From the sequence record PZ445488.1: DNA of 64,000 nucleotides. One strand, written 5' to 3'. The notes beneath the pieces are model-generated. The model worked only from the letters and a program-made list of their open reading frames with translations. It was not told the origin of the DNA and ran no database searches. Within the stretch, counting starts at the first letter, position 1, and each line of letters opens with the position of its first letter. Shown here piece after piece: positions 1 through 58,218 of the stretch. The position numbers and the translations under genes are program-made. The DNA is from a phage.

Positions 1-699
1 AACATAATCAAAATCACGTTCAAACACATGGGCACTTACCATGGTATGAGTATAATCACCAACTTCTACACCGCATTCGTTAGCGATATAATGAAGTAAT
101 TTTCCTTGGAGATAAAAATCCAACTGCATAACAACAGCACAGTTCTGAGAACGCATATGACAGTGGGTATAAAGCTTACCATCACGAATATAATAAGTTA
201 CTGAGTCAGTACATGGATATTCAAGTGTTTCGTCCGAATCAAGCAAAGCCTGATCAGAACTTTCTAGAATTTGGAACACAACTCTTCGAGAGTTAGGTTT
301 TTCTTTAAGTTCTTTTAGAAGAGTTGGTAATTGGGCCGCAATGCGAGGACCATAGAAAGTGTTGAAGTTCGCCGGCAAAACATCTGATTTTGGTTTAGAA
401 ATAAATTTAGCGACATTAGGATATGCCTTAAACGCTTCTTCTGCGTTGGTACCACCAGAAATCATAAACTTCCAGAAGTCTTCGGCATATTCATAAGAGA
501 TGCGGTTAATACGTGGGTCGGTCATTTTGAATGATGATGGAGTGTCAACAACTACTGTCATAGACCCAATTTCATTACAACGTCCAATACGAGAATCAGT
601 TACGAATTCCGGGTTTTCTAAAATTTCACGATTGACTGCTTTAAATGCGGTTTGAAAATCTGCGGCTTTGATATATTTCATTGTGTTATGTTTTCCCAT
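1..699 (-). CDS. 42: dNMP hydroxymethylase-family protein (thymidylate-synthase fold; gp42-like), 3' end beyond window
   Basis: Minus-strand ORF from ATG 697-699 (GAGG about 5 nt upstream) running off the window start, so absent from the ORF track. Translation MGKHNTMKYIKAADF...PCTDSVTYYIRDGKLYTHCHMRSQN...GDYTHTMVSAHVFERDFDYV matches TS/dCMP-hydroxymethylase motifs. Confidence 0.6.
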   Translation of the reverse strand, partial: MGKHNTMKYIKAADFQTAFKAVNREILENPEFVTDSRIGRCNEIGSMTVVVDTPSSFKMTDPRINRISYEYAEDFWKFMISGGTNAEEAFKAYPNVAKFISKPKSDVLPANFNTFYGPRIAAQLPTLLKELKEKPNSRRVVFQILESSDQALLDSDETLEYPCTDSVTYYIRDGKLYTHCHMRSQNCAVVMQLDFYLQGKLLHYIANECGVEVGDYTHTMVSAHVFERDFDYV

Positions 700-741
700 G
701 TTTACCTCAATACAATTTATTATATACTCAATTCATAAAGC

Positions 742-981
742 TTATTTGAATTTCTTGGCAATGTTGATATAACGTAAAGCTTCAGAATCTATACTTCCAA
801 GAACACTATGAAGAAATGCATCAGCGTAGTATTCCAATTGAACAGGTTCTTTAATCACTTTAGCCGCTTTGGTTTCAAACAGGCCCATCAGGGCCTTTTT
901 AAGAATTTGTTCGTTAGTGTTCAGTTTCATAGTCAAAATCTCTTCGTTAAGTTTATAATTAAAACTTTTTCTAGAAATCAT
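742..981 (-). CDS. hypothetical protein (79 aa)
   Basis: ORF track; lies between the gp42-like gene and the U32 gene; no motif recognised; not membrane-like, so not an obvious Imm. Confidence 0.4.
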   Translation of the reverse strand: MISRKSFNYKLNEEILTMKLNTNEQILKKALMGLFETKAAKVIKEPVQLEYYADAFLHSVLGSIDSEALRYINIAKKFK

Positions 982-2138
982 TCCGGGTACCTCAAAGCGT
1001 CATCAGAGCTAGTTATATCAATAATAGATATGGAGTTTTCTGCTAACCCGTTTTTAGATAATTGACGTTTATAATATCTTTCACAATATGTACACGTCGT
1101 CCCGCAGATTTCATTAGCACAATCGAAATCTGGATGTCTGAACCACCTTTTTTCTAAAAAGCCATCTAACAAAGAGGTTTCAATATTTACTGTATGTGAA
1201 AACTCAGTTTCGTTTTCAAGAGTGAAAATAGTCTCTAAAGGCTTCCACAGTTCTAACAAATTACCTTCAAACTTTTCAGAAGCGTATGCTTCAAGAACTT
1301 TCAAAATGTAGTCTGTGCTACCTGTACGTCCTGAAACTTTGAATTGAGTGATACCAATATCATTATAAAGTTTCAAATCTTGAGGACGAACAAAACGAGT
1401 TCTCAGCCAGTTAAATGGGTCTGTATCACGAGCTTTAATACAGTGTTGCATTGGATATCCATTTAAGGATTTAGCATCATCAGCGGTAACATCAGTACTA
1501 TGGAAAATATAGCAAGAGTCACGATAGCTACAATGTGTTGTATACCCTTTACCAGCATTAGAACAGAACTCATTTACAAGAACTTCAAATATTATATTGT
1601 TCTTATTGCAAAACTCTGCTGCACGCTTCAGGAAAGAAACTGAACGGTTCTTATGAATTCCGCAGCAGACCTTTTTGATATTATATTGGTCATGCAAGTA
1701 TTTGATTTGAGTTACAGCATCGACATGTAGAATTGTTGAAACTTCAATCTCAATATCTTTATTGACTTCACGAACAATTTCCATAACAACAGGGTTAGCG
1801 ATAGTAATACGCCATACGCCTATTGACCAAAGATACTGAACATAATCCTGAATAGCTTTCTTCTTCCACTCAACTAGTTCTCTTTTTGAACCAGGATTTA
1901 TCGTGTTGAGTGTATAGTTAAAGCAAATACCTAATTCGTTACAACGTTTAACGTAATCTTCTAACATCTTTTTGTCAACGTCAGGAAGCCTAAAATCAGG
2001 TCTGGCTGCTACAAAAGCCATTTCTCTTGTAGAGCCGTATACTTCGTTTATCAAGCTATTAGGATAAGTTTTATTGAGCTCTACGATTTTATCAAGAAGA
2101 GCTAAATCAAAATTCGTTCCGATTTTAAAAGTATTCAT
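978..2138 (-). CDS. peptidase-U32-family protein (Fe-S, TrhP/RlhA/UbiU-like putative hydroxylase fold)
   Basis: 386 aa; ATG at 2138. Segments ANPVVMEIVREV, IFEVLVNEFCSNAGKGYTTHC and GITQFKVSGRTGS parallel U32 blocks (SDPGLIMLVRE, ELEIFVHGALC.AYSGRC, GVHSLKIEGRTKS); Cys-rich C-terminus CANEICGTTCTYC. Confidence 0.6.
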   Translation of the reverse strand: MNTFKIGTNFDLALLDKIVELNKTYPNSLINEVYGSTREMAFVAARPDFRLPDVDKKMLEDYVKRCNELGICFNYTLNTINPGSKRELVEWKKKAIQDYVQYLWSIGVWRITIANPVVMEIVREVNKDIEIEVSTILHVDAVTQIKYLHDQYNIKKVCCGIHKNRSVSFLKRAAEFCNKNNIIFEVLVNEFCSNAGKGYTTHCSYRDSCYIFHSTDVTADDAKSLNGYPMQHCIKARDTDPFNWLRTRFVRPQDLKLYNDIGITQFKVSGRTGSTDYILKVLEAYASEKFEGNLLELWKPLETIFTLENETEFSHTVNIETSLLDGFLEKRWFRHPDFDCANEICGTTCTYCERYYKRQLSKNGLAENSISIIDITSSDDALRYPE

Positions 2139-2195
2139 TTTTTTTGCATCTCACGTTAATTGATGCGATGGTTTTTGCAGGTCTTACTTAAATTA

Positions 2196-2597
2196 TTATA
2201 GATTAGGTTTATATGATTTAAATGTTTCGAATTCGCCTTTATTCATAAGAGCTTTGAATTCGTCAGGACGCATAGCTTTGTCGTCGATAATCCAATCATA
2301 TACTGGTTTATGTGTTAGCAAATTATGGTACTTCAAGCCAATGTTTGCCAAGTTCTGAATCAGACTTGGGAGAATGTCAATTGCTATACGACCAGGACCT
2401 ACTGACTTCATACCACGAGCCGTGTAAAGCGTTATGGTATGCCCTGCATCATACAGGGCATTAATGGCAGACACCATTTCGACGTCTGGTTTGAAGTTCA
2501 CGTAATCACGATTGTTATTCCATTCCGTGATGCAATCATCGATATCAAAACAAAGATTAAGCATGTTTTCTACATGGTGCATTAGATTCGTTCCCAT
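2196..2597 (-). CDS. HAD-superfamily phosphatase (sugar-phosphate phosphatase candidate)
   Basis: 133 aa; HAD motif I FDIDDCIT and TARG motif; ATG at 2597 or 2582 (ATGA-type overlap with upstream stop). Confidence 0.6.
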   Translation of the reverse strand: MGTNLMHHVENMLNLCFDIDDCITEWNNNRDYVNFKPDVEMVSAINALYDAGHTITLYTARGMKSVGPGRIAIDILPSLIQNLANIGLKYHNLLTHKPVYDWIIDDKAMRPDEFKALMNKGEFETFKSYKPNL

Positions 2598-4270
2598 TGA
2601 TGAGTGATATCGCCACCGATTGGACGATAGGAAACACCAGTTTCTTTATCAGTTAGTACCCATTTACCAGGATTTTTTGTAATCAGAGTAGCCGTTACAG
2701 GTTCTGCTACGTCATAACTAATAGAGCCGTCTTGAAGTACACGGCCCATGTTATGTAATTGCTTAGTCAGAAGTTCCATACCTTTATAATATGCGGCCAC
2801 CGCTTTAAGTGGATTATTCTTGAAATAACCACCTAATGCAATCCAGATAATTGCTACTGCCAAATGATGATACTCATTAAACGAACTCATCTTTCCATAT
2901 TTGTAAACTAATGGATTGATGTTAATAGTCACATTACAAGTTGTTTCATCAATAGTAAACTGACCCCAGGTCGGATTAGCATTGAATTCATCATAACCTG
3001 AAACAGCATAAAGCACTTTAGCTTCATCGTACAATTTTGGCCCGTAAATCTTGGTTTCACCAAAATATCCACGAGGGTCGATAAACTTGACTTCACCATT
3101 ATCAGTAATCATAGTATTACTGAAGTTCGGGTCGCCGTGAATAACAGAGTACTGTCCCTGAGAACGGTTATGATAACGAATAAGATGTTCTAAAGCTTGT
3201 TTCAACATTGGCTTCAGACGTCCAATCTTAGTGTAGTTCACGTGTGTGATTTTACCAAATGAATCAATCAATGGCTGAATGCTTTCACAACGATCAATAA
3301 CTTTCGTATAGAACTCTTTAGTGAAATCACGGCGAACAGTTTCAGGACTTACAAAATAAGTGTCTGTGCTGAATTTCAGTGCATCTAAAATTGCATCAAC
3401 AATTTGTGGACGAGCAAGACTTGATTTGGATTTAATATATTCAAATGCCGGCTTACCTTTAATGCGTTCCATAATAAAGTGGCCGCCAGGATGATAACTT
3501 ACAATCCGTGGAACTGAATCTGATTTAACTTTCTTATACCAATTGACTTCATCTTTTTGAAGTGCAACGCCCTGTTCTGTTAAAGCAATCTTTGTTACCG
3601 TTTCTTCGCCAATTTCAACTGCATTAAAACTACGATTAAGTTCACGAACTTCATGAGCTTTTTCAAGTTTAGGCATATCACCTAAATCAATTAGATTCAT
3701 AAGCTCTGATTTATTGAATGCACTACCGTAAAGGAATTCTACGAAATCACGTCCTTTGCAGTATTCGTGAATTTCCTCATCAGTAGAACCCATGTAGAAT
3801 TCCCAGTCTTTGAACTGATAAATTCCTACAACATTACCACCTGTTGAACCTACGTTAGTGATATTTTCACCATCGAAATTATATCGACATTCATCACCCT
3901 TAACATAGATTGCGTTAACATTCCAAGACCATGAACCAAAGTCAGGAATAATATCACACCAGTTAACAATTACGTTATGGCCATCTAAATCTTTGTATAA
4001 TTTAGCAAGAGCATAAGCAGAACCATACGCTTCATCAACTGTACGAATAGTCACATTGAACCCTTCTTGCTCGCAATAAGCTCGAACAGTTTCAGCAAAT
4101 TTTGAATGAACTACTACAATAATTTCATCTGCGCCAAGGTCAGAATAAATTGTATACAAATTGCTCAGAATAGTGTCTTGTTTATAGTTAACAAGCACCT
4201 TAGGAATATGGTGCGTTATTGGATACAAACGAGTTGCCAGTCCAGCACCAAGAATAACAGCTTTTTTCAT
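2582..4270 (-). CDS. bifunctional sugar-1-phosphate nucleotidyltransferase (N-term, RmlA/LicC/MurU-like) and anomeric sugar kinase (C-term, APH/choline-kinase fold)
   Basis: 562 aa; N-term KAVILGAGLATRLYPIT (GxGTRLxPxT pyrophosphorylase motif); C-term VIHGDPNFSNTMI...FIDPRGYFG (APH-type catalytic loop and DFG-like motif); ATG at 4270 with GAGGA RBS. Confidence 0.7.
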   Translation of the reverse strand: MKKAVILGAGLATRLYPITHHIPKVLVNYKQDTILSNLYTIYSDLGADEIIVVVHSKFAETVRAYCEQEGFNVTIRTVDEAYGSAYALAKLYKDLDGHNVIVNWCDIIPDFGSWSWNVNAIYVKGDECRYNFDGENITNVGSTGGNVVGIYQFKDWEFYMGSTDEEIHEYCKGRDFVEFLYGSAFNKSELMNLIDLGDMPKLEKAHEVRELNRSFNAVEIGEETVTKIALTEQGVALQKDEVNWYKKVKSDSVPRIVSYHPGGHFIMERIKGKPAFEYIKSKSSLARPQIVDAILDALKFSTDTYFVSPETVRRDFTKEFYTKVIDRCESIQPLIDSFGKITHVNYTKIGRLKPMLKQALEHLIRYHNRSQGQYSVIHGDPNFSNTMITDNGEVKFIDPRGYFGETKIYGPKLYDEAKVLYAVSGYDEFNANPTWGQFTIDETTCNVTININPLVYKYGKMSSFNEYHHLAVAIIWIALGGYFKNNPLKAVAAYYKGMELLTKQLHNMGRVLQDGSISYDVAEPVTATLITKNPGKWVLTDKETGVSYRPIGGDITHQWERI

Positions 4271-4311
4271 GTTGTGGTCCTCATTGGTAAGTAGGTGTAT
4301 TGTACACTATT

Positions 4312-4455
4312 CTAGTTAAAGCATTCATACTTTGCTTGTAGTCCAATCATAATCCATCCGATTATAAGAGTCGGAATCATTACTGGAGCCGTTAAGCTCC
4401 AGTAGATAGTCATGACAAGCATCAATAGTAAAAGTCCTATTGTTATTGCTTTCAT
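4312..4455 (-). CDS. small hydrophobic protein (47 aa, 2 predicted TM segments)
   Basis: Hand-translated MKAITIGLLLMLVMTIYWSLTAPVMIPTLIIGWIMIGLQAKYECFN; its ATG overlaps the stop of the SIS gene (ATGA); below the ORF-track size cutoff. Confidence 0.35.
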   Translation of the reverse strand: MKAITIGLLLLMLVMTIYWSLTAPVMIPTLIIGWIMIGLQAKYECFN

Positions 4456-5087
4456 TGTTCGCCTCGTAACATGGCACCTAGTGCACCACCAGGGTGGAAC
4501 TTAAGGAAGTCATTAGAGGTAAATCCGCGTTCAGACGAAAGGTTGATAGCGAACGTATCGATAAGCGCTAACAACAATGTAGTGGACATTGTAGGAGCCA
4601 GAGAATTCTCATCAACCTCTACCGCGATACCGGTACAGAATGTATAATCAAAAAGAGCTTCGTATTCTTGTGGAATGTCCGGGTTACAATGCAACAGAAT
4701 CTGTTTGACATTTGGACGAATCATTTTAAGATGCTTAGCCACGCCTATCATTTCTTCAGTCTTACCAGAACGACTAATATGAATCAACACATCATTAGGC
4801 GCAATGAATCCTGCATCACCGTGAGAATAATGCCCAGTGTTCAAGTACATACTCGGGATACCGAGCGAAGCAAATGTCTCAGAAGCTTTAGTTGCAATAT
4901 TAGCATTCTTACCAACACCTGTAATAATTACTCGGCTTTCATAATTACTAAGTCCAGGGCGTCGAAGAGTTTCTAGAATAGCATTATAACGAGCAGGGTT
5001 TTGACTAATTACTTTGGCCATAGCGGCCAAAGAAGAAGCTTGTTTTATGATTGCGTCAATAGCGATAGTAATAGGAGTAGTTTTCAT
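4452..5087 (-). CDS. SIS-domain sugar-phosphate isomerase, KdsD/GutQ-type (arabinose-5-phosphate isomerase-like), no CBS domains
   Basis: 211 aa; VIITGVGKNANIATKASETFASLGIPS...HISRSGKTEE...LAPTMSTTLLLALIDTF...FHPGGALG aligns block-by-block with the KdsD SIS domain; ATG at 5087. Confidence 0.7.
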   Translation of the reverse strand: MKTTPITIAIDAIIKQASSLAAMAKVISQNPARYNAILETLRRPGLSNYESRVIITGVGKNANIATKASETFASLGIPSMYLNTGHYSHGDAGFIAPNDVLIHISRSGKTEEMIGVAKHLKMIRPNVKQILLHCNPDIPQEYEALFDYTFCTGIAVEVDENSLAPTMSTTLLLALIDTFAINLSSERGFTSNDFLKFHPGGALGAMLRGEQ

Positions 5088-5127
5088 ATTTCTCTCATTT
5101 AATTAGTTTACCGTCCATGACATTATA

Positions 5128-7839
5128 TCAAAAATCGAACATATCGAACAGAGATGCTTTCTTCTCGTAATCGAGTTTCGCTGCTGATGTGAATCCTTCA
5201 AGTGGTTTAATAAATGTCTTCTCAAGGAGAACAGTGTAGTCCATCCAATGAAGTACGTCGTCTTTAATTAAATCTGTGATTTCAGTACCAGAAGGCCATG
5301 CGATACATTTATCACCGAATGGGTTTCCATCACGTAAAGGCAGAACGTATACCTTTTCGCCTTCTACAACTTGTGGAGCATCAATATTACCTTTGATAGC
5401 TCTGTTATATGTCAGAATTCCACGAATATGGAACGGGCATTTAGGACCAGGGAATCCACCAACGTCATATTTAGCAATGTTATTCGCAGAAGATACCGAC
5501 GCGATGCTAATATAATTCAATTGACGGAATTCTTTTTCAAACTCTTTAAAATATTCTTGTAATGATTCTTCACCTTCTTGAAGCATACGACGAATACATT
5601 CTTTAAGAGCTTTCTGTACTGCTTTAGGGGTCGAAGATTTCTGTGTTTCGAGACCCATGATTTTGAGTTTAGGCTCAGCGTATCTGGTTCCTTCCATATC
5701 CCACACGTTTAATGCATAACGTTTCTTACCAGTCCAGAATCCACCAATACCTTTAGAACCGAGTGGAGGACCAGCAATAGCTTCTCGGTCCATGAACATC
5801 AAATGTTGCTTATTATTCATGTATTCACACATTTCACGGAAACCTCTATCAATAGCCGGTTCCATACGTTCACGAGCAAACTTATCTAAGAAGTCTACCC
5901 AATGGTTGGTATCACGGAATTTAGATTCACCAACCTTATCGATAATTTTATCAGCAGATACGTAAATAGAGTCTGTATCACCATAAAGAACGAAAGCTTC
6001 ACCTTCTGTACCACAAACTTCATTCAGATATTCATTAACTTTACGTTCAATCCACTGTAAAGCCATTTGCCCGAATGTTGTGATTGCAGTAGCATTACGC
6101 AAATCATAATAACGGAACCAAACGTTACCAAGTGCACCATAAAGCGAGTTGATGAGCAATTTACGGTTAATTTGTGCAGTCATACCTGCAACTTCAGTAC
6201 GTTGAGCTCTAAACAACATTTCATTAAGAGATTTAGCAGACAACTTTTTAATCTTTTCTTTAATCTCGTCAGTGAAGTCGAAACGATAATCAACATCTAA
6301 TGGTTCGTCAACAGAAAGATTAGGATTATGTAACGCCTCTTTAATTATTTCACCATTACGTTGAGCCGCAAGCATATAACCTTTATGTTCTTTACGTTGA
6401 TTAAAGACCTTAGTGATTTCAGTTGGAACTACACCATCACGGTCTTTATAATACATCATGCCGTTAGGAGAGCAACTGTACACATCTGAAGGACGTTCAG
6501 CGATTGCGTTAATATAATCATGCAATGGAGCTACTTTAAACGTTCCTGCTATTGTTTCTGGGCTAATATTCACTTGGCGAATAATACTTGGATACAGAGA
6601 TGTAAGGTCGAAACTCATTACATATTTGTATCGATTTGGAATAGGTTCCTTAACAAAAGCGCCAGGATAAGGTTGAACCGGGTGAGAACGACCTTGTGGA
6701 ATCACCTTGTTCTGCTCTTTAAGGCTATTAAAAATAATAGCATCCCATGTTTTAATTGGGCTGAACACAGATTGAATCTGTATCTTAGCATAATAACCCA
6801 TGTCCAAACTCAAGTTGATGAACTGGCGCTTAGCATCAATTTGCAATACACGATACACGTCGATAATGTTATAAGAAATATATCGTTGGTGATTGCTTTC
6901 ACGAAGCTTAGAAATAGGGCCGTCATATTTCAGTTTACCGACATTCAATTCAAATTCTGAAATGTAATCCAGAGAATACGACGGTTGGTTTGTGAAAGAG
7001 AATTTTTTGTAAAGGTCAATGTAATCAAGAACAGAAATACCGAACAATGTAATGATTTCACGAGAACCATACATGTTTTCGATAACTTTAACACGAGTTT
7101 TACGATGTGGTGATAAACGTTTCGCAGTAGATTCGCCAAAAATATTCTTGATTCGGTTATACACATATGGAATATCAAATGACTCAACGTTCCATCCGGT
7201 TAAAATGACAGGAGTTTTCTGTTGCCAGAAGTTGAGATATTCCATCAACAATTCTTTTTCGTTATCGAACGGCATATAAATGATTTTATCGATAATTTCG
7301 GATGGAACTTCATCACCACCTTGTTCTTGAAGCTTAGCCGCAATTTCGATAGACCATTCTTCTACATTACCATATGGAGAATTCAAAAGGTCGAATACGT
7401 AGAACCTGTCGTCAATTGAGTCATAATGGGTGATAGCATCAATCGGATGTTTTGCTTGTGACGGCTCAGGGAACCCATCCGGAGATGTTACTTCGATATC
7501 GAAGTTAGCCACACGAATTTTTGTATGGTCGTATTTGATTTCATAGTTATAAGTGTCAGACAAATACGACAATTTGAAATCGTCCATACCTAATGCTTCA
7601 AGACCGATATCTTCCATGCGTTTAATCCATTGGGAGGCATCACGCATATTAGCGAACAACTTACGAGTACACGGCTTACCGTAGATATCGAAATATTTCG
7701 TAGCCTGACTTTCTGGACAATGAGCAAACAATGATGGTTTATATTCTACTTCACGAGTACGTTCACGGCCATTAGAATCGATGTAACGTTCAAAAATTGA
7801 ATCACCAATCTGTTCAACCGTTAAGTAAAATTCTTTCAT
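5128..7839 (-). CDS. 43: DNA polymerase gp43 (family B, with 3'-5' exonuclease)
   Basis: 903 aa; N-terminus MKEFYLTVEQIGDSIFERYIDSNGRE and motifs YGDTDS and KILLNSLYG-like match the T4/RB69 polymerase (RB69 gp43 is 903 aa, from memory); ATG at 7839. Confidence 0.97.
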   Translation of the reverse strand: MKEFYLTVEQIGDSIFERYIDSNGRERTREVEYKPSLFAHCPESQATKYFDIYGKPCTRKLFANMRDASQWIKRMEDIGLEALGMDDFKLSYLSDTYNYEIKYDHTKIRVANFDIEVTSPDGFPEPSQAKHPIDAITHYDSIDDRFYVFDLLNSPYGNVEEWSIEIAAKLQEQGGDEVPSEIIDKIIYMPFDNEKELLMEYLNFWQQKTPVILTGWNVESFDIPYVYNRIKNIFGESTAKRLSPHRKTRVKVIENMYGSREIITLFGISVLDYIDLYKKFSFTNQPSYSLDYISEFELNVGKLKYDGPISKLRESNHQRYISYNIIDVYRVLQIDAKRQFINLSLDMGYYAKIQIQSVFSPIKTWDAIIFNSLKEQNKVIPQGRSHPVQPYPGAFVKEPIPNRYKYVMSFDLTSLYPSIIRQVNISPETIAGTFKVAPLHDYINAIAERPSDVYSCSPNGMMYYKDRDGVVPTEITKVFNQRKEHKGYMLAAQRNGEIIKEALHNPNLSVDEPLDVDYRFDFTDEIKEKIKKLSAKSLNEMLFRAQRTEVAGMTAQINRKLLINSLYGALGNVWFRYYDLRNATAITTFGQMALQWIERKVNEYLNEVCGTEGEAFVLYGDTDSIYVSADKIIDKVGESKFRDTNHWVDFLDKFARERMEPAIDRGFREMCEYMNNKQHLMFMDREAIAGPPLGSKGIGGFWTGKKRYALNVWDMEGTRYAEPKLKIMGLETQKSSTPKAVQKALKECIRRMLQEGEESLQEYFKEFEKEFRQLNYISIASVSSANNIAKYDVGGFPGPKCPFHIRGILTYNRAIKGNIDAPQVVEGEKVYVLPLRDGNPFGDKCIAWPSGTEITDLIKDDVLHWMDYTVLLEKTFIKPLEGFTSAAKLDYEKKASLFDMFDF

Positions 7840-11052: not shown

Positions 11053-11253
11053 TTATTCGTAGAAGTCAGTAACTGTCCATGCGGAATTGCGATTAGACAT
11101 TATTTTATTATACTCATCTTTAAAAGCAGATTTGAGCATTTGTTCAGTAACAATATGTTCTTCACCTGAAAACGTATTGGTCAAAACATATTTTTTAATT
11201 TCAGGGACAACGAGAAGATGTTGTCCGGTTGAATACTCCATGTTGTTCTCCAT
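11053..11253 (-). CDS. hypothetical protein (66 aa; T4 45.2 position)
   Basis: ORF track; ATG at 11253; compact early array. Confidence 0.5.
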   Translation of the reverse strand: MENNMEYSTGQHLLVVPEIKKYVLTNTFSGEEHIVTEQMLKSAFKDEYNKIMSNRNSAWTVTDFYE

Positions 11254-11260
11254 TTAATTT

Positions 11261-11294
11261 GATGTGGTCATTATAACCACATCGTGTTAAAGCG
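11261..11294 (-). promoter_or_regulatory. candidate MotA-dependent middle promoter (MotA-box-like CGCTTTA, 12-bp spacer, TATAAT) with the -10 in the loop of an 8-bp palindrome
   Basis: Minus strand reads aaCGCTTTAacacgatgtggtTATAATgaccacatc; palindrome GATGTGGT/ACCACATC; sits directly upstream of the 11253 start. Confidence 0.4.
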
Positions 11295-11295
11295 T

Positions 11296-12984
11296 TTATG
11301 AAACAGTCATTACCGTAAATCGTCCAACTTTGCTCATCTGAAGATGTTGTCCATAACGTTGAGGGTCATGGTCTCGATGAGAGATAATGAACACATTAGT
11401 ATTTTGTAAACTTCCAAGAATGGTATCTATAGCCTTAACAGCCTCAGAATCGACAGCACCATCAAAAACCTCATCAAGAATCAGAGTGTTGATTTTAACG
11501 CCAGAGACCTTTTCAGCAATATCTCGCCATGTAAACAACAATGCGATATCGATACGTGCCTTTTCACCTTGACTAAATGAAGCATAACTGAACTCTTCAC
11601 GGCCACGTGATTTTATAGATTCATTGAATTCTTCGTCAATAGAAAACACGTAATCAGCTTCCATGATTTTAAGATAGTGGTTAATCTGCTTGTTGAACAG
11701 AGGCACATATTTTTTAATGATAGCACCTTTAATACCAGAATCTTTTAACATATCTGTGATAATACCACGATGGTATTTTTCAAGAACGATATCCGATTTT
11801 GTTTTAATGATTTTATCAAGTTCTTTTTGAAGCAAAGCTATCTCATCGGCGTGGTCGATAAATTCCGCCGAGGCTTGCTCTATTGCAGCTTTAACTTTCT
11901 TAGCTTTATCAATAGTGGCAATCATTGCTTGTTTCTTGGTACGGATATCGGATGCAAGGTCCTGTTTAGTCTTAACATTAGCTCGATATTCGTCCACTAG
12001 GACACTCAGATTATCTCTGTGGCAGGTAAGTTGCTCGAATGAGTGATTACATTCATGAAGCTTATCGGTAATCTTAGAGACAATAGGGTCACCCTGGTGC
12101 AACTGTGATGCGCAAGTAGGACATGTACCGCCATCATGATACATCTTAATAACTTTGTTATATGAGTCAATTTTAGATTTAATCAAGAATGCTTCTTGTC
12201 CGATCTTGTTGAATGCCTCAGTAGGGTCTTCGTCAAGAACGATATTAAGTAGACGCTCGTTAGCTTCTTCAATTTCTGCTTTTAATGAACGAGCTTCTTT
12301 GGCTAGGTCGTCATACATATTCTGTAGACGCGCTACATTATCGCCAGATAATTTCTTTTGACGTTCGATATTCTCGTTATAAATCTTAATTTGTTGGATA
12401 ATACCATCTTTCTTGGCATCGAGAACTTGTCCCTGGGAATTAAGTTCTCGAACTTGAGACTTATTGATTTTATCCATTTCAGCTAGTGTTCCAACTTCTA
12501 ATAAGTCTTCAACAAGCTTTCTGCGAGCAGGGGTGCTAAGAGCCATGAAAGGGGTATACCCTGCCGTCCCAAGCACAACGATCTGTTTAAAAGACGCGTA
12601 TGACATTCTGATGCTACGTTCAAATTCTTCTTGGAAGTCACGACTGCTGGCAGATTCATCAAGACGAACACCGTCAACGGAGATTTCGAAAATATTAGGC
12701 TTTTGGCCTCGTTTAATGAAGTATTTTTTATCATCGAATTCCATCCAAAGCTCAACTAAGAGCTCTTTCTTGTTCGTGCTATTAATGATTTGTCCTTTCT
12801 TAACATCACGAAATGGTTTACCGAAAAGTCCGAAAGTAATGGCTTCTAACATCGTAGATTTACCACCGCCATTTTTACCAGTGATTAATGTCTTTTGGAC
12901 TTTATCTAATTGGATATCAATAGGATTCCCACCTACCGACATGATGTTTTGATAACGAACACGATTTAATTTAAATGATTTCAT
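11296..12984 (-). CDS. 46: recombination endonuclease subunit gp46 (SbcC/Rad50-like ATPase)
   Basis: 562 aa; N-terminal Walker A ITGKNGGGKST, coiled-coil middle with CxxC hook (CPTCAS), C-terminal signature and Walker B; ATG at 12984. Confidence 0.92.
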   Translation of the reverse strand: MKSFKLNRVRYQNIMSVGGNPIDIQLDKVQKTLITGKNGGGKSTMLEAITFGLFGKPFRDVKKGQIINSTNKKELLVELWMEFDDKKYFIKRGQKPNIFEISVDGVRLDESASSRDFQEEFERSIRMSYASFKQIVVLGTAGYTPFMALSTPARRKLVEDLLEVGTLAEMDKINKSQVRELNSQGQVLDAKKDGIIQQIKIYNENIERQKKLSGDNVARLQNMYDDLAKEARSLKAEIEEANERLLNIVLDEDPTEAFNKIGQEAFLIKSKIDSYNKVIKMYHDGGTCPTCASQLHQGDPIVSKITDKLHECNHSFEQLTCHRDNLSVLVDEYRANVKTKQDLASDIRTKKQAMIATIDKAKKVKAAIEQASAEFIDHADEIALLQKELDKIIKTKSDIVLEKYHRGIITDMLKDSGIKGAIIKKYVPLFNKQINHYLKIMEADYVFSIDEEFNESIKSRGREEFSYASFSQGEKARIDIALLFTWRDIAEKVSGVKINTLILDEVFDGAVDSEAVKAIDTILGSLQNTNVFIISHRDHDPQRYGQHLQMSKVGRFTVMTVS

Positions 12985-13220: not shown

Positions 13221-13464
13221 TATACGCATCCTCAATACACGCTTCAGCCATTTTAAGAATAGAGCCAGGAGTATCGTTGTCCATTATATTAAAGCTAAAT
13301 TCAATAGCCCAGTCGGTACAGACATGAACGGCTTTAACTTCATTGCCTTCAACGCGTAATGGCTCAATCCAATACTTGATAGTGTTCTCGAATCCATCAT
13401 CATCTTTAACGTCTATTTCAACTTCAAGCCCGAGCCCAGCATTGTTAAATTCATCTAAAGTCAT
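13207..13464 (-). CDS. hypothetical acidic protein (85 aa)
   Basis: ORF track; ATG at 13464 overlaps the gp47 stop. Confidence 0.5.
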   Translation of the reverse strand: MTLDEFNNAGLGLEVEIDVKDDDGFENTIKYWIEPLRVEGNEVKAVHVCTDWAIEFSFNIMDNDTPGSILKMAEACIEDAYNDED

Positions 13465-14480
13465 TGTGTTGCCTCAATATAAAGTTCGTTGGAATATTTG
13501 ACCAGCGCTTCTCTGTCTTCGTCTGAGATATCTGGAATCGCGTCAATATATTCTTTAATGATATCTTGAAGTGATTTAATCTCGATTTCCTGGTCGTCAT
13601 CAGATTCAACACTGTTATCAACTTTAGAAACCATACGAAGAGAGTGAACTACTTTTTCAAGTTCAGATTCAAACTTAGTCAACTCTGAATCAATTTCTGA
13701 TACTATAACACGTACGGCTAGATTAGTATAATCAGAATAATTAATTTTGCCTTTAAACGGATAAGTGATTCGTCGATGCCATGTTGTTTCATTAGGAATA
13801 AATTCCATACGTTCAACATCAGTGTCAAATACCCAGAATCCGCGCGGATCGTTCTCATCACCTGCAGTAAGGGTCCATGGTGTCCCAATATATTTGACGT
13901 TAGCAGCTTCAGAGATTGTGTGGAAGTGGCCAGACCAGACTTGTTTATAGGTCTTTAAGAAATCAGGTTCAAGCCCATGAGACTTCATTCCTTTATAGAA
14001 ATAAAAACCGTTCAGTTCCCAGTGACCAACACAATACGCAGCAGAAGAAGTCTTGATGTGCTCTAAGATTTCACCTGTATTTTCTTCACACATCCACGGA
14101 ACGATATCGATCAGACATCCGTCAAAATCTACAGTAGTTGGATGTTCGTAAATAGTAAAGTTTTCAAATTGAGTTAACAATTCAGAAACAGTGTTAGGTG
14201 TTATTGTATTCTTAAACGCCATGTCATGGTTTCCTATCGTGACATGAACGTGAATGCCTGCCTTAGAAATCATATCAACGATTTCACGATTGAATTCCAT
14301 TGTACGATGTGTTATTGCTTTACGGACGTCGAACCAATCACCGTACTGAATCCAAGTTTTAATCCCGTGTTTCTTAGAGTATTCAATTGCTTGACGAATA
14401 CCATCGCGTTGAATATCTTGAACCCATGGGTCGTCTTGTTTGACTCCAATATGGAAGTCGCCTAAGTGCAAAATTTTCAT
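13461..14480 (-). CDS. 47: recombination endonuclease subunit gp47 (SbcD/Mre11-like phosphoesterase)
   Basis: 339 aa; MKILHLGDFHIG and GNHD metallophosphatase motifs; ATG at 14480. Confidence 0.92.
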   Translation of the reverse strand: MKILHLGDFHIGVKQDDPWVQDIQRDGIRQAIEYSKKHGIKTWIQYGDWFDVRKAITHRTMEFNREIVDMISKAGIHVHVTIGNHDMAFKNTITPNTVSELLTQFENFTIYEHPTTVDFDGCLIDIVPWMCEENTGEILEHIKTSSAAYCVGHWELNGFYFYKGMKSHGLEPDFLKTYKQVWSGHFHTISEAANVKYIGTPWTLTAGDENDPRGFWVFDTDVERMEFIPNETTWHRRITYPFKGKINYSDYTNLAVRVIVSEIDSELTKFESELEKVVHSLRMVSKVDNSVESDDDQEIEIKSLQDIIKEYIDAIPDISDEDREALVKYSNELYIEATQ

Positions 14481-14526
14481 ATTATTTCCTCATTAGTTAA
14501 TTCATTCTATCATCCGTTTATAAAGC

Positions 14527-14550
14527 AAAAAAGGAACTCCGAAGAGTTCC
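14527..14550 (-). terminator. rho-independent terminator (GGAACUC-UUCG-GAGUUCC + U6)
   Basis: 7-bp stem, UUCG tetraloop, followed on the minus strand by TTTTTTGC; immediately 3' of the small ORF at 14550..14723. Confidence 0.6.
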
Positions 14551-14723
14551 TATCCACATAGTACACCATACAGAGGCTCATTTGAACTTTTAAATCGAAT
14601 GGGCTTGTATGTAATAGTTCCTTCGGCTTTAGCTTTATCATAAGACTCTTTAAAACGTCTCATTCTTTCTGCTTTGCCTTTACGGATTTTATCGAAATTT
14701 TCAGAAGTCGGGATGTTCGTCAT
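14550..14723 (-). CDS. small basic protein (57 aa)
   Basis: Hand-translated MTNIPTSENFDKIRKGKAERMRRFKESYDKAKAEG...; ATG at 14723; its stop lies within the terminator stem; below the ORF-track cutoff. Confidence 0.35.
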   Translation of the reverse strand: MTNIPTSENFDKIRKGKAERMRRFKESYDKAKAEGTITYKPIRFKSSNEPLYGVLCG

Positions 14724-14762
14724 GCATAATCACCTCTCAGAAAATACCTAAATCGATTTCTC

Positions 14763-14969
14763 TCATCGTTTCCACCATTTCTTAACTTGAAATGAATCAA
14801 CCCACACGAGTTGTTTTGGGTCTGCCTTTACAATAGGCGGACAAATTTCTGTAATAGAACCGTCGTGATATTCCTTTTCAGAAATTTTAACACAAAGAGG
14901 ACCTCCCAATTTAAGGGTGAACCCTGCATTCAGCTTCAGACGTTTAAACTTTGTTTGAACTAGCGCCAT
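14763..14969 (-). CDS. hypothetical protein
   Basis: ORF track frame; ATG 14969 (GAGG 9 nt upstream) preferred over the TTG at 14984. Confidence 0.4.
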   Translation of the reverse strand: MALVQTKFKRLKLNAGFTLKLGGPLCVKISEKEYHDGSITEICPPIVKADPKQLVWVDSFQVKKWWKR

Positions 14970-15267
14970 TAATGATGTCCTCAATAGCCTGACGAGTAGT
15001 AACCCACTGGATTTTAATTAACTTGTCATTATATGGTTGTCGTAGAATATCCCGAGATTTCTTAATAGCATATTCGTAAGCTTCGAAGTTGTTTTGAATT
15101 GCTGCTTCTTGAGCATGAGCATAAAGACGGTTTAGTTCAAAACGATTCTTTTTAAGAATCTTTTCGGATTTTTTACGTGCTTCAGCTTCATTTTTCTTTT
15201 GGATTTCTTGTAGCATTTTAGCTACTGCATCTTCTGCTTCTTTATTTTCAATAATCTCGGTAGTCAT
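14944..15267 (-). CDS. hypothetical protein (107 aa, Lys/Glu-rich coiled coil)
   Basis: ORF track; ATG at 15267. Confidence 0.5.
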   Translation of the reverse strand: MTTEIIENKEAEDAVAKMLQEIQKKNEAEARKKSEKILKKNRFELNRLYAHAQEAAIQNNFEAYEYAIKKSRDILRQPYNDKLIKIQWVTTRQAIEDIINGASSNKV

Positions 15268-15268
15268 A

Positions 15269-15484
15269 TTATCTCATTAAATTAAAATAAAAACGTCCAT
15301 CCTCTTCAATACAGAACTCATACTCAACCGGAGTCCCATTTATCGAAAATGACACGTCATGTGGGTTCAAAGGGTCGATGTCAAAATTAATTTTAAATTC
15401 ACGACCCAACAGTTTTACCAAATAAGGGATTGCTTCGTCAAAAGGTTCTTCTAAGTAGTTAGAGATGTCAATTGTCATCCTCAT
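15269..15484 (-). CDS. hypothetical protein
   Basis: ORF track frame; start placed at ATG 15484 because the longer track ORF would run 95 nt into gene 55. Confidence 0.4.
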
Positions 15485-16025
15485 ATAAAAAATCCAAACT
15501 AGGCGAATCGCTAACAACTTCCTTCTTTTCAGCCCCAGGAGCTTTATAAGCGGATTCTTCATAATGCGTCATTTTATCGTAGATGTCTTGAATAAACGTT
15601 TCATCTACCAACGCTACCATATCATCGTCATGACTGTCGTAGACATTATGAACGAAGTAACTATATTTCTTTGCAACTTCCTTACGTTCTTTTTTGATAC
15701 GTTGGACAAAAGCATTAAAACAAGCTCGAGTTATGTATGCATGTGGGTTATTGTACTTAGTTTCGTCGAAATTATGAAGTCCCTTAATAGAGGCTTCAAT
15801 CCCATCTGCAATCATCTCCTGCTTCCAAGACTGGGTATATCCTGAAAAGTTGAAACGTTTGGACAGGCCTTCGGCAATAAGCATAATTGCTAAACCGATG
15901 GTATCATTCTGACGAATAATTTTGTTTGGGTCTTTATTATTTAAGAGCTCCTTTTTCCACTCGATTATAGCGGCGAGAAGCTCTTTATTATTCACATAGT
16001 TATTTTTAGGTTTTTGTTCAGTCAT
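15468..16025 (-). CDS. 55: late-transcription sigma factor gp55
   Basis: [60 protein letters not shown]... matches T4 gp55 (185 aa) from ATG 16025 with AAGAGG RBS; the track start 16043 is TTG. Confidence 0.9.
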
Positions 16026-26221: not shown

Positions 26222-27217
26222 TCATTCCTTAAGAAGTTTTACTACTTGAATAAGATTAGCTCGTTCTGTTTTATTTTTACCATTTAAGCCTGCTAATCGT
26301 GAGATTTCATCGTCAGTCTGTTGAATAGTTACATTAAGTTCGTTAATCAAAGCTTCAAAGTATTTGATTTGCTCAGCATGTTTTGATTCAAATTTCTGAA
26401 CCGGAATAACGTCTTGGTTCAGTTCATCAATAAGGTCTTTAAGAGCATCTTCTTGGTTGATATCATATTCAACTTCTTTTATTTCTTCAACGAGCTCGTC
26501 TTTATATCTAACGTCTTTTAGTCCTGGAGCTGGTCCTGAAATCTCTTCTTTAAGAGTACAAACATACCCAATACGGTATCCAATGCCGTCTCGCTTGATA
26601 TCAACTTCGTCGATAAATCCACAATGTTTAAGACCAGAGCCGATTATGTCAAAATATCCTTGACGTCGTCCTTCAAACGTTACACGAACTACTAAGACAG
26701 TTTTACCACCAACCTTTTGAAGCTCACATTTATAAAAGTCTGTTGAACCTGAATAACGTGGATGAGTTTTAAAGTTCATCTGACGATCTAGGCCCATTTG
26801 TAAACGTGCTGTTACGGCCATAAAACGTGTTTGGTTCTCGTTAAGATGAGCAACAATCCATTTCAAAGGCATTTTACACTGTTCACGACCGAACAAATCA
26901 GTACGTCCTAGATTACGCAGGATATTGTTAGAGTTAATCATCGACAGAACGTTAAGTTTATTCAGCGCGCTGAAGATTCCATCAGCCATTGATTTTCCAT
27001 AACCTTTACACGCTTTAATAAGTGCTCGCGGCAGATTAGTATAGATTTCAGACGGCATATGAAAATCAAATTTACTAGTCAGTAATTGATGAACTTGGAT
27101 AGCAATTTGCTCATAATTAAGTGCTCTGCGATCGTTATGGTCTTTAAACCACACTTTAATCTGTGAAGCACATAAACCGTTAATTTCATGTTTTACCGCA
27201 TCAGATGTAATACTCAT
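26222..27217 (-). CDS. hypothetical protein (331 aa) with C-terminal coiled coil
   Basis: ORF track; ATG at 27217; preceded at 27253..27276 by a degenerate copy of the CCAAGGA(T/C)GG promoter element with a shortened spacer. Confidence 0.55.
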   Translation of the reverse strand: MSITSDAVKHEINGLCASQIKVWFKDHNDRRALNYEQIAIQVHQLLTSKFDFHMPSEIYTNLPRALIKACKGYGKSMADGIFSALNKLNVLSMINSNNILRNLGRTDLFGREQCKMPLKWIVAHLNENQTRFMAVTARLQMGLDRQMNFKTHPRYSGSTDFYKCELQKVGGKTVLVVRVTFEGRRQGYFDIIGSGLKHCGFIDEVDIKRDGIGYRIGYVCTLKEEISGPAPGLKDVRYKDELVEEIKEVEYDINQEDALKDLIDELNQDVIPVQKFESKHAEQIKYFEALINELNVTIQQTDDEISRLAGLNGKNKTERANLIQVVKLLKE

Positions 27218-27279
27218 AACTATTTCCTCAGATTGAATTGGAACTCAAAACCATTATAACCCGTCCTTGGGTAAAGCGT

Positions 27280-27807
27280 TTATGCGTGAACCGTCTTTAA
27301 ACGTTCTTCAAATTTCCGAAGAGTACTAATACGTTCTGCTTTCTGTTTTGTATAGTTTGCAATACGTTCTGAAGTGAGAGCGTATCGTTCGTTTACTGTT
27401 TCTTTCATGAAGTCAGGGATTTCACGAGAAGCTTTAATTTCATCAAACTTGTCGAGTACTGCCTGGTCTTCAGCGATTAAATTTTCATACATCTCGATAT
27501 CTTTCTTGATAAACTCGATATCTTCCTGAGTTACTTTGGATAAACGAGATGCTTTATCCTTTTTGTACTGCTCGTTAGTTTCACGAGACCAGAATAATGT
27601 ACGTTTTTTGTTAGTGTTTTTGTAGACTTCCACAATTCCAACTGAATCGATGATAACAATCCAATTCCAGCGAGATTTGAAAATCTGACCTCCATCCACG
27701 GTAATCTCGTTACCATAAGCAACGTCATTAAAGAACTTGCTCTGTGCTTCAGATTTAAATTTACCGTCGTTATAATTTACCAGGTTGAAAATATCTTTAG
27801 CGTTCAT
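27280..27807 (-). CDS. hypothetical protein (175 aa)
   Basis: ORF track; ATG at 27807 with GGAGGTAAAAC RBS. Confidence 0.55.
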   Translation of the reverse strand: MNAKDIFNLVNYNDGKFKSEAQSKFFNDVAYGNEITVDGGQIFKSRWNWIVIIDSVGIVEVYKNTNKKRTLFWSRETNEQYKKDKASRLSKVTQEDIEFIKKDIEMYENLIAEDQAVLDKFDEIKASREIPDFMKETVNERYALTSERIANYTKQKAERISTLRKFEERLKTVHA

Positions 27808-27834
27808 GTTTTACCTCCAGTAGTTGATAGGTCT

Positions 27835-27863
27835 ATAATAACATAACCATAGACCTTGTAAAC
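27835..27863 (-). promoter_or_regulatory. early promoter (GTTTAC, 17 bp, TATTAT) inside palindrome AGGTCTAT/ATAGACCT
   Basis: Minus strand reads GTTTACaaggtctatggttatgtTATTATagacctatc. Confidence 0.5.
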
Positions 27864-27865
27864 AA

Positions 27866-28153
27866 CTAAAAGAAACTTTTTTCGGTATTTTTTCCACTGA
27901 ACCAAACAGACTTCGGGATTTTTTGTAATTTTTCAGATTTAAGTTTCTCTTCCTGTTCTTTCTTATATACACTCTTGTCGTACTGGAGCATCTCTATGGC
28001 ATTCTTTTGCAAATGATCTAAGGTAATTAAGGCTTTAGTTTTTCCTTTCAAGGAAGAGTCCTGGCGAACTTCCTCGCTATATTGCATCGTAGAACTAACC
28101 ATACGATGTGCATAGAGTTCGACTGCGGCTTTAATTTTTTGCATAAAATCCAT
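27866..28153 (-). CDS. hypothetical protein (95 aa)
   Basis: ORF track. Confidence 0.45.
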   Translation of the reverse strand: MDFMQKIKAAVELYAHRMVSSTMQYSEEVRQDSSLKGKTKALITLDHLQKNAIEMLQYDKSVYKKEQEEKLKSEKLQKIPKSVWFSGKNTEKSFF

Positions 28154-46654: not shown

Positions 46655-46683
46655 ATAGTAACACCGTCCATGGTGTTTGTACA
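46655..46683 (-). promoter_or_regulatory. early promoter (TGTACA, 17 bp, TACTAT) + GACCTATC arm
   Basis: Minus strand reads TGTACAaacaccatggacggtgtTACTATagacctatc. Confidence 0.45.
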
Positions 46684-47187
46684 TCATTTATTTTTAATTT
46701 TGCAAATTTTTCCAGCTTCGATACATGCAGCATAGATGATGCTCTGGGCAATTTTATTGCTAGTAGACCTTGCAATCACACTAAGAACAATTTCTTTTTC
46801 TTCACCACCACAACCCCAGGACCTTTGCTCATGAGTACCTTTAACTACGGCTGAAACTTCAACAGAACGTCCGCCATCAGAAGTTTTAACATCTACAACC
46901 CAATCGCCATCTTTCTCTTCAACCTGTGGTTTATCCCAAGAAATACTAATATATGATTCACTGTCAATAGAAGTCGCCGGGTTTTTCTTTACTGTAAGGC
47001 CTTCACTTTCCAGCCATTCAATAGTATTTGCGCATAAATCAGAAGAACACCTCATCGGAAACCGGCAAGATTTTTCACCTTTAGCTGCAGTGTTATACAT
47101 CTTTTCTAAAATACGCTTTTGCACGTTTTTAAAAATAGTTTCAGCAGATTCTTCAGATTTTTTATTCAGTTCAGTGTAAAGACTCAT
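46684..47187 (-). CDS. hypothetical protein (167 aa)
   Basis: ORF track frame from ATG 47187 (AGAGGAAAAT RBS); the track start 47376 would read through the promoter and terminator. Confidence 0.5.
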   Translation of the reverse strand: MSLYTELNKKSEESAETIFKNVQKRILEKMYNTAAKGEKSCRFPMRCSSDLCANTIEWLESEGLTVKKNPATSIDSESYISISWDKPQVEEKDGDWVVDVKTSDGGRSVEVSAVVKGTHEQRSWGCGGEEKEIVLSVIARSTSNKIAQSIIYAACIEAGKICKIKNK

Positions 47188-47215
47188 AATATTTTCCTCT
47201 GTGGTTGATAAATCT

Positions 47216-47244: not shown

Positions 47245-47275
47245 AACTTTTTCAGTAAGTTGTAGACCCCCTAAT

Positions 47276-58216: not shown

Positions 58217-58218
58217 AA

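Follow-up and report, generated by a model that had tools for sequence, protein, structure and literature searches.

The Mosigvirus studied here very probably carries no alpha-glucosyltransferase gene (a-gt) since its DNA is decorated with arabinose on 5-hydroxycytosine, not with glucose on 5-hydroxymethylcytosine (hmC). The DNA analyzed, hereafter the window, is a 64-kb piece of the genome of this RB69-like T-even relative, as identified by sequence identity and synteny. Gene content, synteny, identity and diagnostic residues were observed in the window, and the enzyme activities and DNA chemistry are taken from the literature; for this particular phage, we infer the arabinosyl-5-hydroxycytosine chemistry from these two sources together. 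In the proposed mechanism, a flavin-dependent thymidylate synthase (TS) homologue would convert dCMP to 5-hydroxy-dCMP, and an arabinose-5-phosphate (A5P) isomerase, a kinase/uridylyltransferase and a phosphatase may lead from ribulose-5-phosphate to UDP-arabinofuranose. GT-B arabinosyltransferases, represented in relatives by gp46:47 and gp3, could then modify 5-hydroxycytosine in the DNA. An alpha-glucosyltransferase would not be needed because the phage would not make its acceptor, 5-hydroxymethylcytosine. That RB69-like phages have no a-gt, b-gt or ba-gt, and that a cytosine hypermodification with arabinose accounts for this, is already known from work published in 2018, and the revision of the base to 5-hydroxycytosine dates from 2025-2026.

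Gene content between genes 47 and 55

The lower bound of the interval is gene 47 (13461..14480, minus strand), a 339-aa ORF for an SbcD-like recombination nuclease subunit whose product shares 75.8% identity with T4 gp47 over its full length. The upper bound is gene 55 (15468..16025, minus strand), the late sigma factor gene, whose product shares 90.7% identity with T4 gp55 and for which the mechanical ORF starts from a TTG at 16043. Positions 14481-15467 are exactly the interval between the two genes, and its length of 987 nt is too short for a 400-aa gene because such a gene requires 1203 nt. The sequence-only reading had described this interval as holding four small ORFs and a terminator, with no alpha-glucosyltransferase and no gene of glycosyltransferase size, and each of these statements was borne out by the searches reported below.

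The space is filled by four minus-strand ORFs, which match T4 a-gt.2 to a-gt.5 with E values of 1e-14 to 2.5e-32 in tblastn searches. The a-gt.2 counterpart (14550..14723, minus strand, 57 aa, phrog_2140) is 76% identical to the T4 protein and 95% identical to that of RB69, and the a-gt.3 counterpart (14763..14969, minus strand, phrog_1648), with 68 aa from an ATG or 73 aa from an upstream TTG, shows 71% and 100% identity, respectively. They are followed by the a-gt.4 counterpart (14944..15267, minus strand, 107 aa), with 58% identity to T4 and 100% to RB69, and by the a-gt.5 counterpart (15269..15478, minus strand), with 47% identity to T4 and 100% to RB69. The last of these shares nucleotides with the 3' end of gene 55; it is given as 69 aa, with an alternative start at 15484, and as 97 aa by the mechanical list of ORFs. 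Three of the four match Pfam families, namely DUF5486 (a-gt.2, E 4.5e-28), DUF2654 (a-gt.4, E 1e-27) and DUF5491 (a-gt.5, E 5e-13), and the a-gt.3 product matched no family in the Pfam search. The genes a-gt.2 to a-gt.5 lie downstream of gene 55 in identical order in T4, RB69, Mineola, VR7 and WG01, and the block in the window is thus assigned by similarity and conserved order as orthologous to the T4 genes. The sequence-only reading did not recognize the small ORFs as a-gt.2 to a-gt.5, nor the map as the published RB69 map. In the literature on the roles of a-gt.2 to a-gt.5, a single comparative paper of 2006 names a-gt.4 and assigns no function; any of the four small ORFs, or the U32-like protein described below, may have a part in DNA modification.

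An intrinsic terminator (14522..14551, minus strand) with an 8-bp stem, a UUCG tetraloop and a U-tract is located between a-gt.2 and gene 47. On the minus strand, its hairpin at 14551-14532 reads AGGAACUC-UUCG-GAGUUCCU, followed by UUUUUUGCUUU, and the fold has a dG of -13.9 kcal/mol and a z of -3.3. The element is kept across five genera with covarying stems and carries a terminator annotation in NBG1, and it is predicted to close the transcription unit of gene 55 and a-gt.5 to a-gt.2. Immediately following the terminator, and 24 nt ahead of the gene 47 start, is a MotA-box site (14504..14527, minus strand; TGCTTTA, N11, TAGAAT), for which the consensus match suggests a middle-promoter role. 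Matches to a looser MotA-promoter pattern are more frequent in the window than in shuffled sequences, with eight on the minus strand against 0.9 +/- 1.0, and the 11-mer TTGCTTTATAA is not enriched there (6 matches against 3.9 expected). T4, SG1, Mineola, VR7 and WG01 also have the combined hairpin and MotA-box unit in this position. The conserved block in Tevenvirinae would accordingly run from gene 55 through a-gt.5, a-gt.4, a-gt.3 and a-gt.2 to the terminator and putative middle promoter and then to gene 47, and a-gt would be an optional cassette, carried between a-gt.2 and gene 47 in Tequatrovirus and Jiaodavirus and not present here.

The modified base and the arabinose genes

The sole TS-like gene in the window lies at its left edge (1..699, minus strand), where the last five codons are lost. 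Its product matches Pfam Thymidylat_synt and shares 98.7% identity with RB69 gp48 over 233 of 238 residues, against 24.8% identity with T4 gp42. The diagnostic residues are E143, the catalytic C146, N169 and D177, numbered on an E. coli ThyA sequence; position 169 is Asn in the window protein and Asp in T4 gp42 and E. coli ThyA. The signature described for 5-hydroxy-dCMP synthases comprises the TS fold, the catalytic Cys, L143E, N177D and a predictive D169N, and expression of RB69 gp48 gave 5-hydroxy-dCMP, not 5-hydroxymethyl-dCMP (PMC13326640). Flavin-dependent hydroxylation of dCMP with O2 has been reported for both RB69 gp48 and the HY126 enzyme (PMC13326640). On its residues and identity, the window gene is assigned as a predicted 5-hydroxy-dCMP synthase of the RB69 gp48 / DLP3 gp80 type. 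Because the TS homologue is nearly identical to gp48 and has E143, D177 and N169, the base of the window phage is expected to be arabinosylated 5-hydroxycytosine and not hmC.

It is very unlikely that the base is arabinosyl-hydroxymethylcytosine (ara-hmC), as first proposed for RB69. This name was used by Thomas et al. (2018, PMC6024577) and repeated in a comparative paper of 2021 (PMC8056088), and the TS homologue does retain, as T4 gp42 does, the catalytic Cys and Asp177, the residue that selects dCMP. However, the 2018 study identified the sugar and not the linkage to the base (PMC6024577), and later NMR/MS and 18O2 labelling demonstrated an ether linkage between the sugar and 5-hydroxycytosine (PMC13326640). 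Against ara-hmC there also stand the activity of gp48, the near-identity of the window protein to gp48 with D169N as against 25% identity to T4 gp42, and the gene content of the relatives: no gp42 orthologue was found in the window or in complete RB69 and mar005p1, where the 25%-identical TS homologue was the sole match and no other gp42-like gene is present. The sequence-only reading had taken the sugar genes near gene 43 to indicate a non-glucose hmC modification; its non-glucose part agrees with arabinose genes 95-100% identical to those of RB69, whereas its hmC part does not hold, given a gp48-type TS homologue with N169 and no gp42.

Arabinosylation of the expected base is in turn indicated by a group of minus-strand genes adjoining gene 43, the DNA polymerase gene (5128..7839, minus strand; 61% identity to T4 gp43 over 901 aa), which serves as a landmark. 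The first is a predicted arabinose-5-P isomerase (4452..5087), with a Pfam SIS match at E 1.7e-10 and 99% identity to RB69 gp55, whose counterparts in relatives are annotated as KpsF or A5P isomerase. A 562-aa ORF (2582..4270) corresponds to the bifunctional arabinose-phosphate kinase / UDP-arabinose pyrophosphorylase of the RB69 gp52:53 and HY126 AfhE type; it has an N-terminal Pfam NTP_transferase match, weak C-terminal APH/kinase matches and 95-100% identity to RB69 gp53 and gp52. The product of 2196..2597, a HAD-like phosphatase of the RB69 gp51 / HY126 AfhF type with 99.2% identity to gp51, had no Pfam match, and its function is assigned from PMC13326640. A Peptidase-U32-like protein (978..2138; Pfam Peptidase_U32, E 7e-11) is 99% identical to RB69 gp50. 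RB69 gp55, gp52:53, gp51 and gp50 have been assigned to UDP-arabinofuranose synthesis (PMC13326640; PMC6024577), and by similarity to them the putative isomerase, kinase/uridylyltransferase and HAD phosphatase genes of an RB69-type pathway are present in the window.

Queries with the RB69 arabinosyltransferases gp46:47 and gp3 gave best E values of 0.067 and 0.67 in the window, which is noise. Both GT-B enzymes are encoded in RB69 and in mar005p1, with gp46:47 directly downstream of the gene that the left edge of the window cuts and RB69 gp3 adjoining rIIA, and both genes of the window phage presumably lie outside the window. Arabinosylated 5-hydroxycytosine has been found in the virion DNA of RB69, and arabinosylated 5-hydroxy-dC in the DNA of the E. 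coli phages HY126, Bas46 and Bas47 (PMC13326640); HY126 is 96.9% identical to positions 1-5200 of the window.

The appropriate label for the window phage would thus be an arabinosyl-5-hydroxycytosine Mosigvirus and not an hmC phage, and the names dCMP hydroxymethylase and thymidylate synthase, used in many database records for the TS-like gene at the left edge, would be wrong. How sensitive the phage is predicted to be to type IV restriction, to Brig1-type glycosylases and to CRISPR depends on this annotation, and with it the host range expected in phage therapy.

Searches for glucosyltransferases

In tblastn searches of the window with E up to 10, T4 a-gt, 47.1 and mobB gave best E values of 0.29-0.55, which is noise; the best match of a-gt had an E of 0.55 over 16 aa. 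The longest non-coding gap in the interval between genes 47 and 55 is just 69 nt, and there is therefore no a-gt pseudogene remnant between the two genes. A b-gt or ba-gt homologue would be expected near gene 42 / uvsX; the position adjoining gene 43 is taken by the arabinose module and holds neither. The ORFs of glycosyltransferase size in the window are nrdC.3,.5,.6,.10 and.11, ORF132c/134c-type proteins, gp2 and gp1, and the ten largest unassigned ORFs of this size matched no glycosyltransferase family in Pfam or PHROGs.

It is extremely unlikely that a glucosyltransferase has moved elsewhere in the genome, beyond the 64-kb window, and that the DNA is glucosylated after all. In favour of such a move, the absence has been established directly only within the window, mosaic genomes are a feature of T4-like phages, and local differences set the window apart from both complete relatives used for comparison. 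However, a search of the whole genome, which the sequence-only reading had suggested together with a comparison of the RB69 and T4 maps, could be performed by proxy on complete RB69 and complete mar005p1, which are 95-97% identical to the window over its length. T4 a-gt was not found in either genome by tblastn, and T4 b-gt and the T2/T6-type ba-gt (with RB27 ba-gt as the query) gave no match with E below 1 in the window, RB69 or mar005p1. HMM searches had likewise detected no a-gt, b-gt or ba-gt homologue in RB69, which has arabinose and not glucose in its DNA (Thomas et al. 2018, PMC6024577). In the phage collection, tblastn matches to T4 a-gt were confined to a Tequatrovirus-like group (at least 90% identity) and a Klebsiella-phage group (about 66%). 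Furthermore, T4 a-gt requires 5-hydroxymethylcytosine, and the lineage has no gp42 to supply this acceptor. The suggested map comparison gave the same result, in that the RB69 arrangement is identical to that of the window and T4 carries 47.1, a-gt and mobB in the slot.

The absence of a-gt is no assembly artefact, and a recent deletion or artefact in one isolate is scarcely credible: two similar hairpin and MotA-box units flank a-gt in T4 and could mediate a deletion, but the uninterrupted arrangement is found as a single piece with at least 98.7% identity in all 40 listed of 147 phage records (those with one place covering at least 80% of the query) and in RB69, sequenced independently in 2003, the slot is empty in Gaprivervirus VR7 and holds 47.1 alone in Dhakavirus WG01, and a complete alternative pathway of modification goes with this arrangement.

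Borders of a-gt and comparison with known systems

Hairpin and promoter units are repeated on both sides of a-gt. The unit of about 45 nt combines a UUCG hairpin with a TTTTGCTTTAT MotA box and, as the -10 element, TAnAAT, and has the core sequence GCTTTATA; one copy is present in the window, and two copies flank a-gt in T4, SG1 and Mineola. In its left half, the window unit is similar to the T4 unit that follows a-gt.2, with TTGCTTTATAAA identical in the two, and in its right half it is similar to the T4 unit that follows a-gt (CGGA..TGATA.AATGA). A tentative and rather doubtful reading is that a-gt forms a self-contained cassette bounded by a unit on both sides, that the window represents the single-copy "empty site", and that a-gt may be gained or lost by recombination between units. 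If so, recombination between terminator/middle-promoter units could switch the type of DNA modification, in the manner of PeSL but with a middle promoter and at a site between core genes. In the published PeSL cassettes of T4-type phages, which are found in hyperplastic regions, a stem-loop is paired with an early promoter (Arbiol 2010, PMC2839356; Comeau 2014, PMC4122927). As in PeSL, a short motif of terminator hairpin and promoter recurs on either side of a variable gene, which is a-gt in this case; in contrast, the promoter element here matches the MotA-dependent middle consensus and the site lies between core genes. The duplicated units around a-gt are thus a modest lead on the swapping of modification genes among T-even phages.

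In T4, the flanking genes and the four a-gt.N genes are orthologous to those of the window (47-91% amino acid identity), and the UUCG hairpin and TGCTTTA unit follow a-gt.2 in both. In contrast to the window, T4 has about 2.2 kb of extra DNA with the mobB homing endonuclease gene, a-gt and 47.1, and a second hairpin/promoter unit after a-gt; its a-gt product, absent from the window phage, is a GT-B alpha-glucosyltransferase with 5-hydroxymethylcytosine DNA as the acceptor.

Collinearity of the window with RB69 extends over positions 25515-89299 of that genome at ~96% identity, and the interval between genes 47 and 55 shares 100% identity with a CEV1 fragment and about 99% with many genomes of Mosigvirus. 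RB69 has the identical map of 47, a-gt.2 to a-gt.5 and 55 (RB69p066-p071), with the same spacing and terminator sequence, and its arabinosylation cluster is likewise flanked by gene 43 and the TS homologue. Unlike RB69, from which it diverges by about 4% in nucleotides, the window phage has an intact kinase/uridylyltransferase, which is split into gp52 and gp53 in the RB69 record, and, between genes 5 and 5.1, an additional seg-like insertion (56846-57708). The two ORFs of this insertion had no Pfam match, nor had two ORFs at 46684-47923. Compared with the two complete relatives, the window phage is a mosaic, with positions 57710-64000, for example, being 85% identical to mar005p1 and 98% identical to RB69.

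The closest known modification system is the arabinosyl-5-hydroxycytosine system of RB69, HY126, Bas46/47 and DLP3 (Thomas 2018; Lee 2026, PMC13326640; and Mahler 2025, as far as it is cited in PMC13216743). The arabinosyltransferase and thymidylate-kinase-like genes of the system would lie beyond the window, in which a phage dNMP kinase is encoded at 51706-52440. Within the window, five nearly identical genes are shared with this system, namely those for the predicted 5-hydroxy-dCMP synthase, A5P isomerase, kinase/uridylyltransferase, HAD phosphatase and U32-like protein.

Content of the interval between genes 47 and 55

Every gene in window 1-54000 is carried on the minus strand, and the interval 14481-15467 is the exact space from the start codon of gene 47 (13461-14480, a 339-aa ORF with 76% identity to T4 gp47) to the stop codon of gene 55 (15468-16025, 91% identity to T4 gp55). 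Its 987 nt are nearly filled by four small minus-strand ORFs, which were identified by tblastn with T4 proteins (E range 1e-14 to 2.5e-32) as the orthologues of a-gt.5 (15269-15478, 69 aa, 47% identity, Pfam DUF5491), a-gt.4 (14944-15267, 107 aa, 58% identity, DUF2654), a-gt.3 (14763-14969, 68 aa, 71% identity), and a-gt.2 (14550-14723, 57 aa, 76% identity, DUF5486). Three of the four thus have Pfam families, all four fall into PHROG families of unknown function, and no assigned function for a-gt.2-a-gt.5 was found in a literature search. A 400-aa gene is too long for 987 nt, and therefore the absence of the T4 alpha-glucosyltransferase gene a-gt is physically certain for this interval. The sequence-only reading of four ORFs (57-107 aa), a terminator, and no glycosyltransferase-sized gene is borne out by the ORFs, by the hairpin at the gene 47 junction, and by the 987-nt length.

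The absence also held in a genome-wide check, for which complete RB69 and the complete Mosigvirus mar005p1 served as proxy for the whole genome. With T4 a-gt, the beta-glucosyltransferase gene b-gt of T4, and the T2/T6-type beta-alpha-glucosyltransferase gene ba-gt from RB27 as queries, the best E value in these two genomes was 0.04, in short noisy segments. None of the window's ORFs of glycosyltransferase size (nrdC.3, nrdC.5, nrdC.6, nrdC.10, nrdC.11, and the RB69 ORF134c homologue) matched a glycosyltransferase family, and no glycosyltransferase of any kind was found within the 64-kb window. These results agree with the report that RB69 has no a-gt, b-gt, or ba-gt homologue and that its DNA carries arabinose, not glucose (Thomas et al. 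2018, PMC6024577).

Sugar module and modified base

A sugar module directly adjoins gene 43 in the window. It comprises a SIS-domain arabinose-5-phosphate isomerase (4452-5087, counterpart of RB69 gp55), a 562-aa nucleotidyltransferase and kinase fusion (2582-4270, gp53+52), a small phosphatase homologue (2196-2597, gp51), a peptidase-U32-like protein (978-2138, gp50), a 79-aa ORF (742-981, gp49), and a thymidylate-synthase homologue cut by the window edge (1-699, gp48), with 91-100% identity to the RB69 proteins. In RB69, UDP-arabinofuranose synthesis is attributed to gp55, gp52:53, and gp51, whose HY126 equivalents have been biochemically characterised (Lee et al. 2026, PMC13326640). The predicted DNA arabinosyltransferases, RB69 gp46:47 and gp3, are located in both complete relatives just past the window's left edge and beside rIIA, respectively.

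The kinase/uridylyltransferase is one intact ORF in the window and is split into gp52 and gp53 in the RB69 reference record; the intact ORF supports the published reading of that split as a sequencing error (PMC13326640). The U32-like protein, which is embedded in the modification cluster and is the least understood of its conserved members, is listed as a "sugar or heterocycle reductase" (Table 1, PMC13326640).

RB69 DNA contains mono- and poly-arabinosylated 5-hydroxycytosine, in which the sugar is ether-linked to C5, and therefore the RB69 base is not hydroxymethylcytosine; gp48 converts dCMP to 5-hydroxy-dCMP with O2 and flavin, and hydroxylases of this kind are predicted from the signature D169N (E. 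coli ThyA numbering) (Lee et al. 2026, PMC13326640). In the alignment, the window homologue possesses E143, C146, N169, and D177, and the T4 dCMP hydroxymethylase gp42 possesses D169. By its N169 signature and 98.7% identity to RB69 gp48, the 1-699 gene should be a 5-hydroxy-dCMP synthase. Many GenBank/RefSeq records of close relatives label this gene "thymidylate synthase", "thyA", or "deoxycytidylate 5-hydroxymethyltransferase". No further gp42-like sequence was found in complete RB69 or mar005p1. Hydroxymethylcytosine (hmC) as the base is not supported, given N169 in the sole thymidylate-synthase homologue, its only 25% identity to gp42, and the published RB69 base. Of the "non-glucose hmC" system proposed earlier, the non-glucose part stands, given the arabinose module and the lack of a glucosyltransferase in the window and in the two complete relatives; the hmC part lacks support, as the enzyme is of the gp48 type and no gp42 orthologue was found in these sequences. 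By analogy with RB69, arabinosyl-5-hydroxycytosine is the modification expected for this phage.

Hairpin and promoter-like unit beside gene 47

A 69-nt spacer separates a-gt.2 from gene 47 and may be described as a putative compact regulatory unit. A hairpin after the small ORFs (14551-14532, AGGAACUC-UUCG-GAGUUCCU, -13.9 kcal/mol, z = -3.3) is followed by a U-tract and then directly by TTTTTGCTTTA, 11 nt, and TAGAAT. The MotA-dependent middle-promoter consensus is established for T4 transcription, and TTTTTGCTTTA N11 TAGAAT fits it as a pattern match. Such matches are enriched on the window's coding strand (8 observed versus 0.9 +/- 1.0 in shuffles), and one of the eight sits before the 562-aa sugar-nucleotide gene. 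This site (4299-4323, minus strand, TGCTTTA N12 TACAAT, ~30 nt upstream) matches the consensus, which suggests that the arabinose pathway could be transcribed in the middle mode.

The unit also occurs at the a-gt.2/47 boundary in other genera. The slot between these genes is empty in Gaprivervirus VR7, is occupied by 47.1 alone in Dhakavirus WG01, and holds a-gt in Tequatrovirus SG1 and T4 and in Jiaodavirus Mineola. The hairpin stems covary across genera (GGAACTC/GAGTTCC, GGAGC/GCTCC, GGAAGC/GCTTCC, and GGGC/GCCC). In all a-gt carriers examined the unit occurs twice, with a-gt flanked by a copy to its left and another to its right. The window has a single copy, whose 5' half is similar to the left copy of T4 and whose 3' half is similar to the right one. 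This arrangement suggests that a-gt may have been gained or lost via recombination between the units, the sole element of this analysis for which no counterpart was found in the cited literature.

Phage identity and comparison with RB69 and T4

Collinearity with RB69 25515-89299 (~96% identity) extends over the whole window. The interval matches a CEV1 (Escherichia phage) fragment at 100% identity and many complete Mosigvirus-classified genomes at ~99%; its uninterrupted arrangement recurs in all 40 matches listed, of 147 records in which one place covers at least 80% of the query. Over window 57710-64000 (genes 5.1, 6, and 7), identity is 98% with RB69 and only 85% with mar005p1, whereas the 47-55 interval shares ~99% identity with mar005p1-type phages. 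The genome is accordingly mosaic, with segments from different Mosigvirus lineages.

An insertion of ~920 nt between genes 5 and 5.1 (56790-57710) lacks a counterpart in RB69. Its consecutive plus-strand ORFs (56846-57307 and 57304-57708, 153 and 134 aa) have no Pfam match; the N-terminus of the first is GIY-YIG-like, and in tblastn T4 SegA matches both of them weakly (E 1e-4 and 6e-3, respectively). A homing endonuclease of the seg type, split into two ORFs, is the probable identity of this insertion. Most of window 46663-47960 finds no blastn counterpart in RB69. It holds two overlapping minus-strand ORFs (46684-47376, 230 aa, and 47297-47923, 208 aa), neither of which hits a Pfam family; the first matches only PHROG families of unknown function. 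In mar005p1 (OZ035759), a mobB-like HNH homing-endonuclease ORF (27189-27994, plus strand, 44% identity to the T4 MobB N-terminus) lies between 45.2 and gene 46, whereas it is absent from the window (11239-11307) and from RB69.

The T4 order is 55, a-gt.5, a-gt.4, a-gt.3, a-gt.2, mobB, a-gt, 47.1, and 47. Compared with T4, the interval lacks exactly three genes, mobB, a-gt, and 47.1 (~2.2 kb), none of which has a detectable match across the whole window. In the RB69 record the annotated order is 47, a-gt.2, a-gt.3, a-gt.4, a-gt.5, and 55, and the encoded proteins share 95-100% identity with their window counterparts; the observation therefore corresponds to the published RB69 gene map. The empty a-gt slot is a trait already known for the lineage of RB69-like phages, and the mechanism published for it is well supported.
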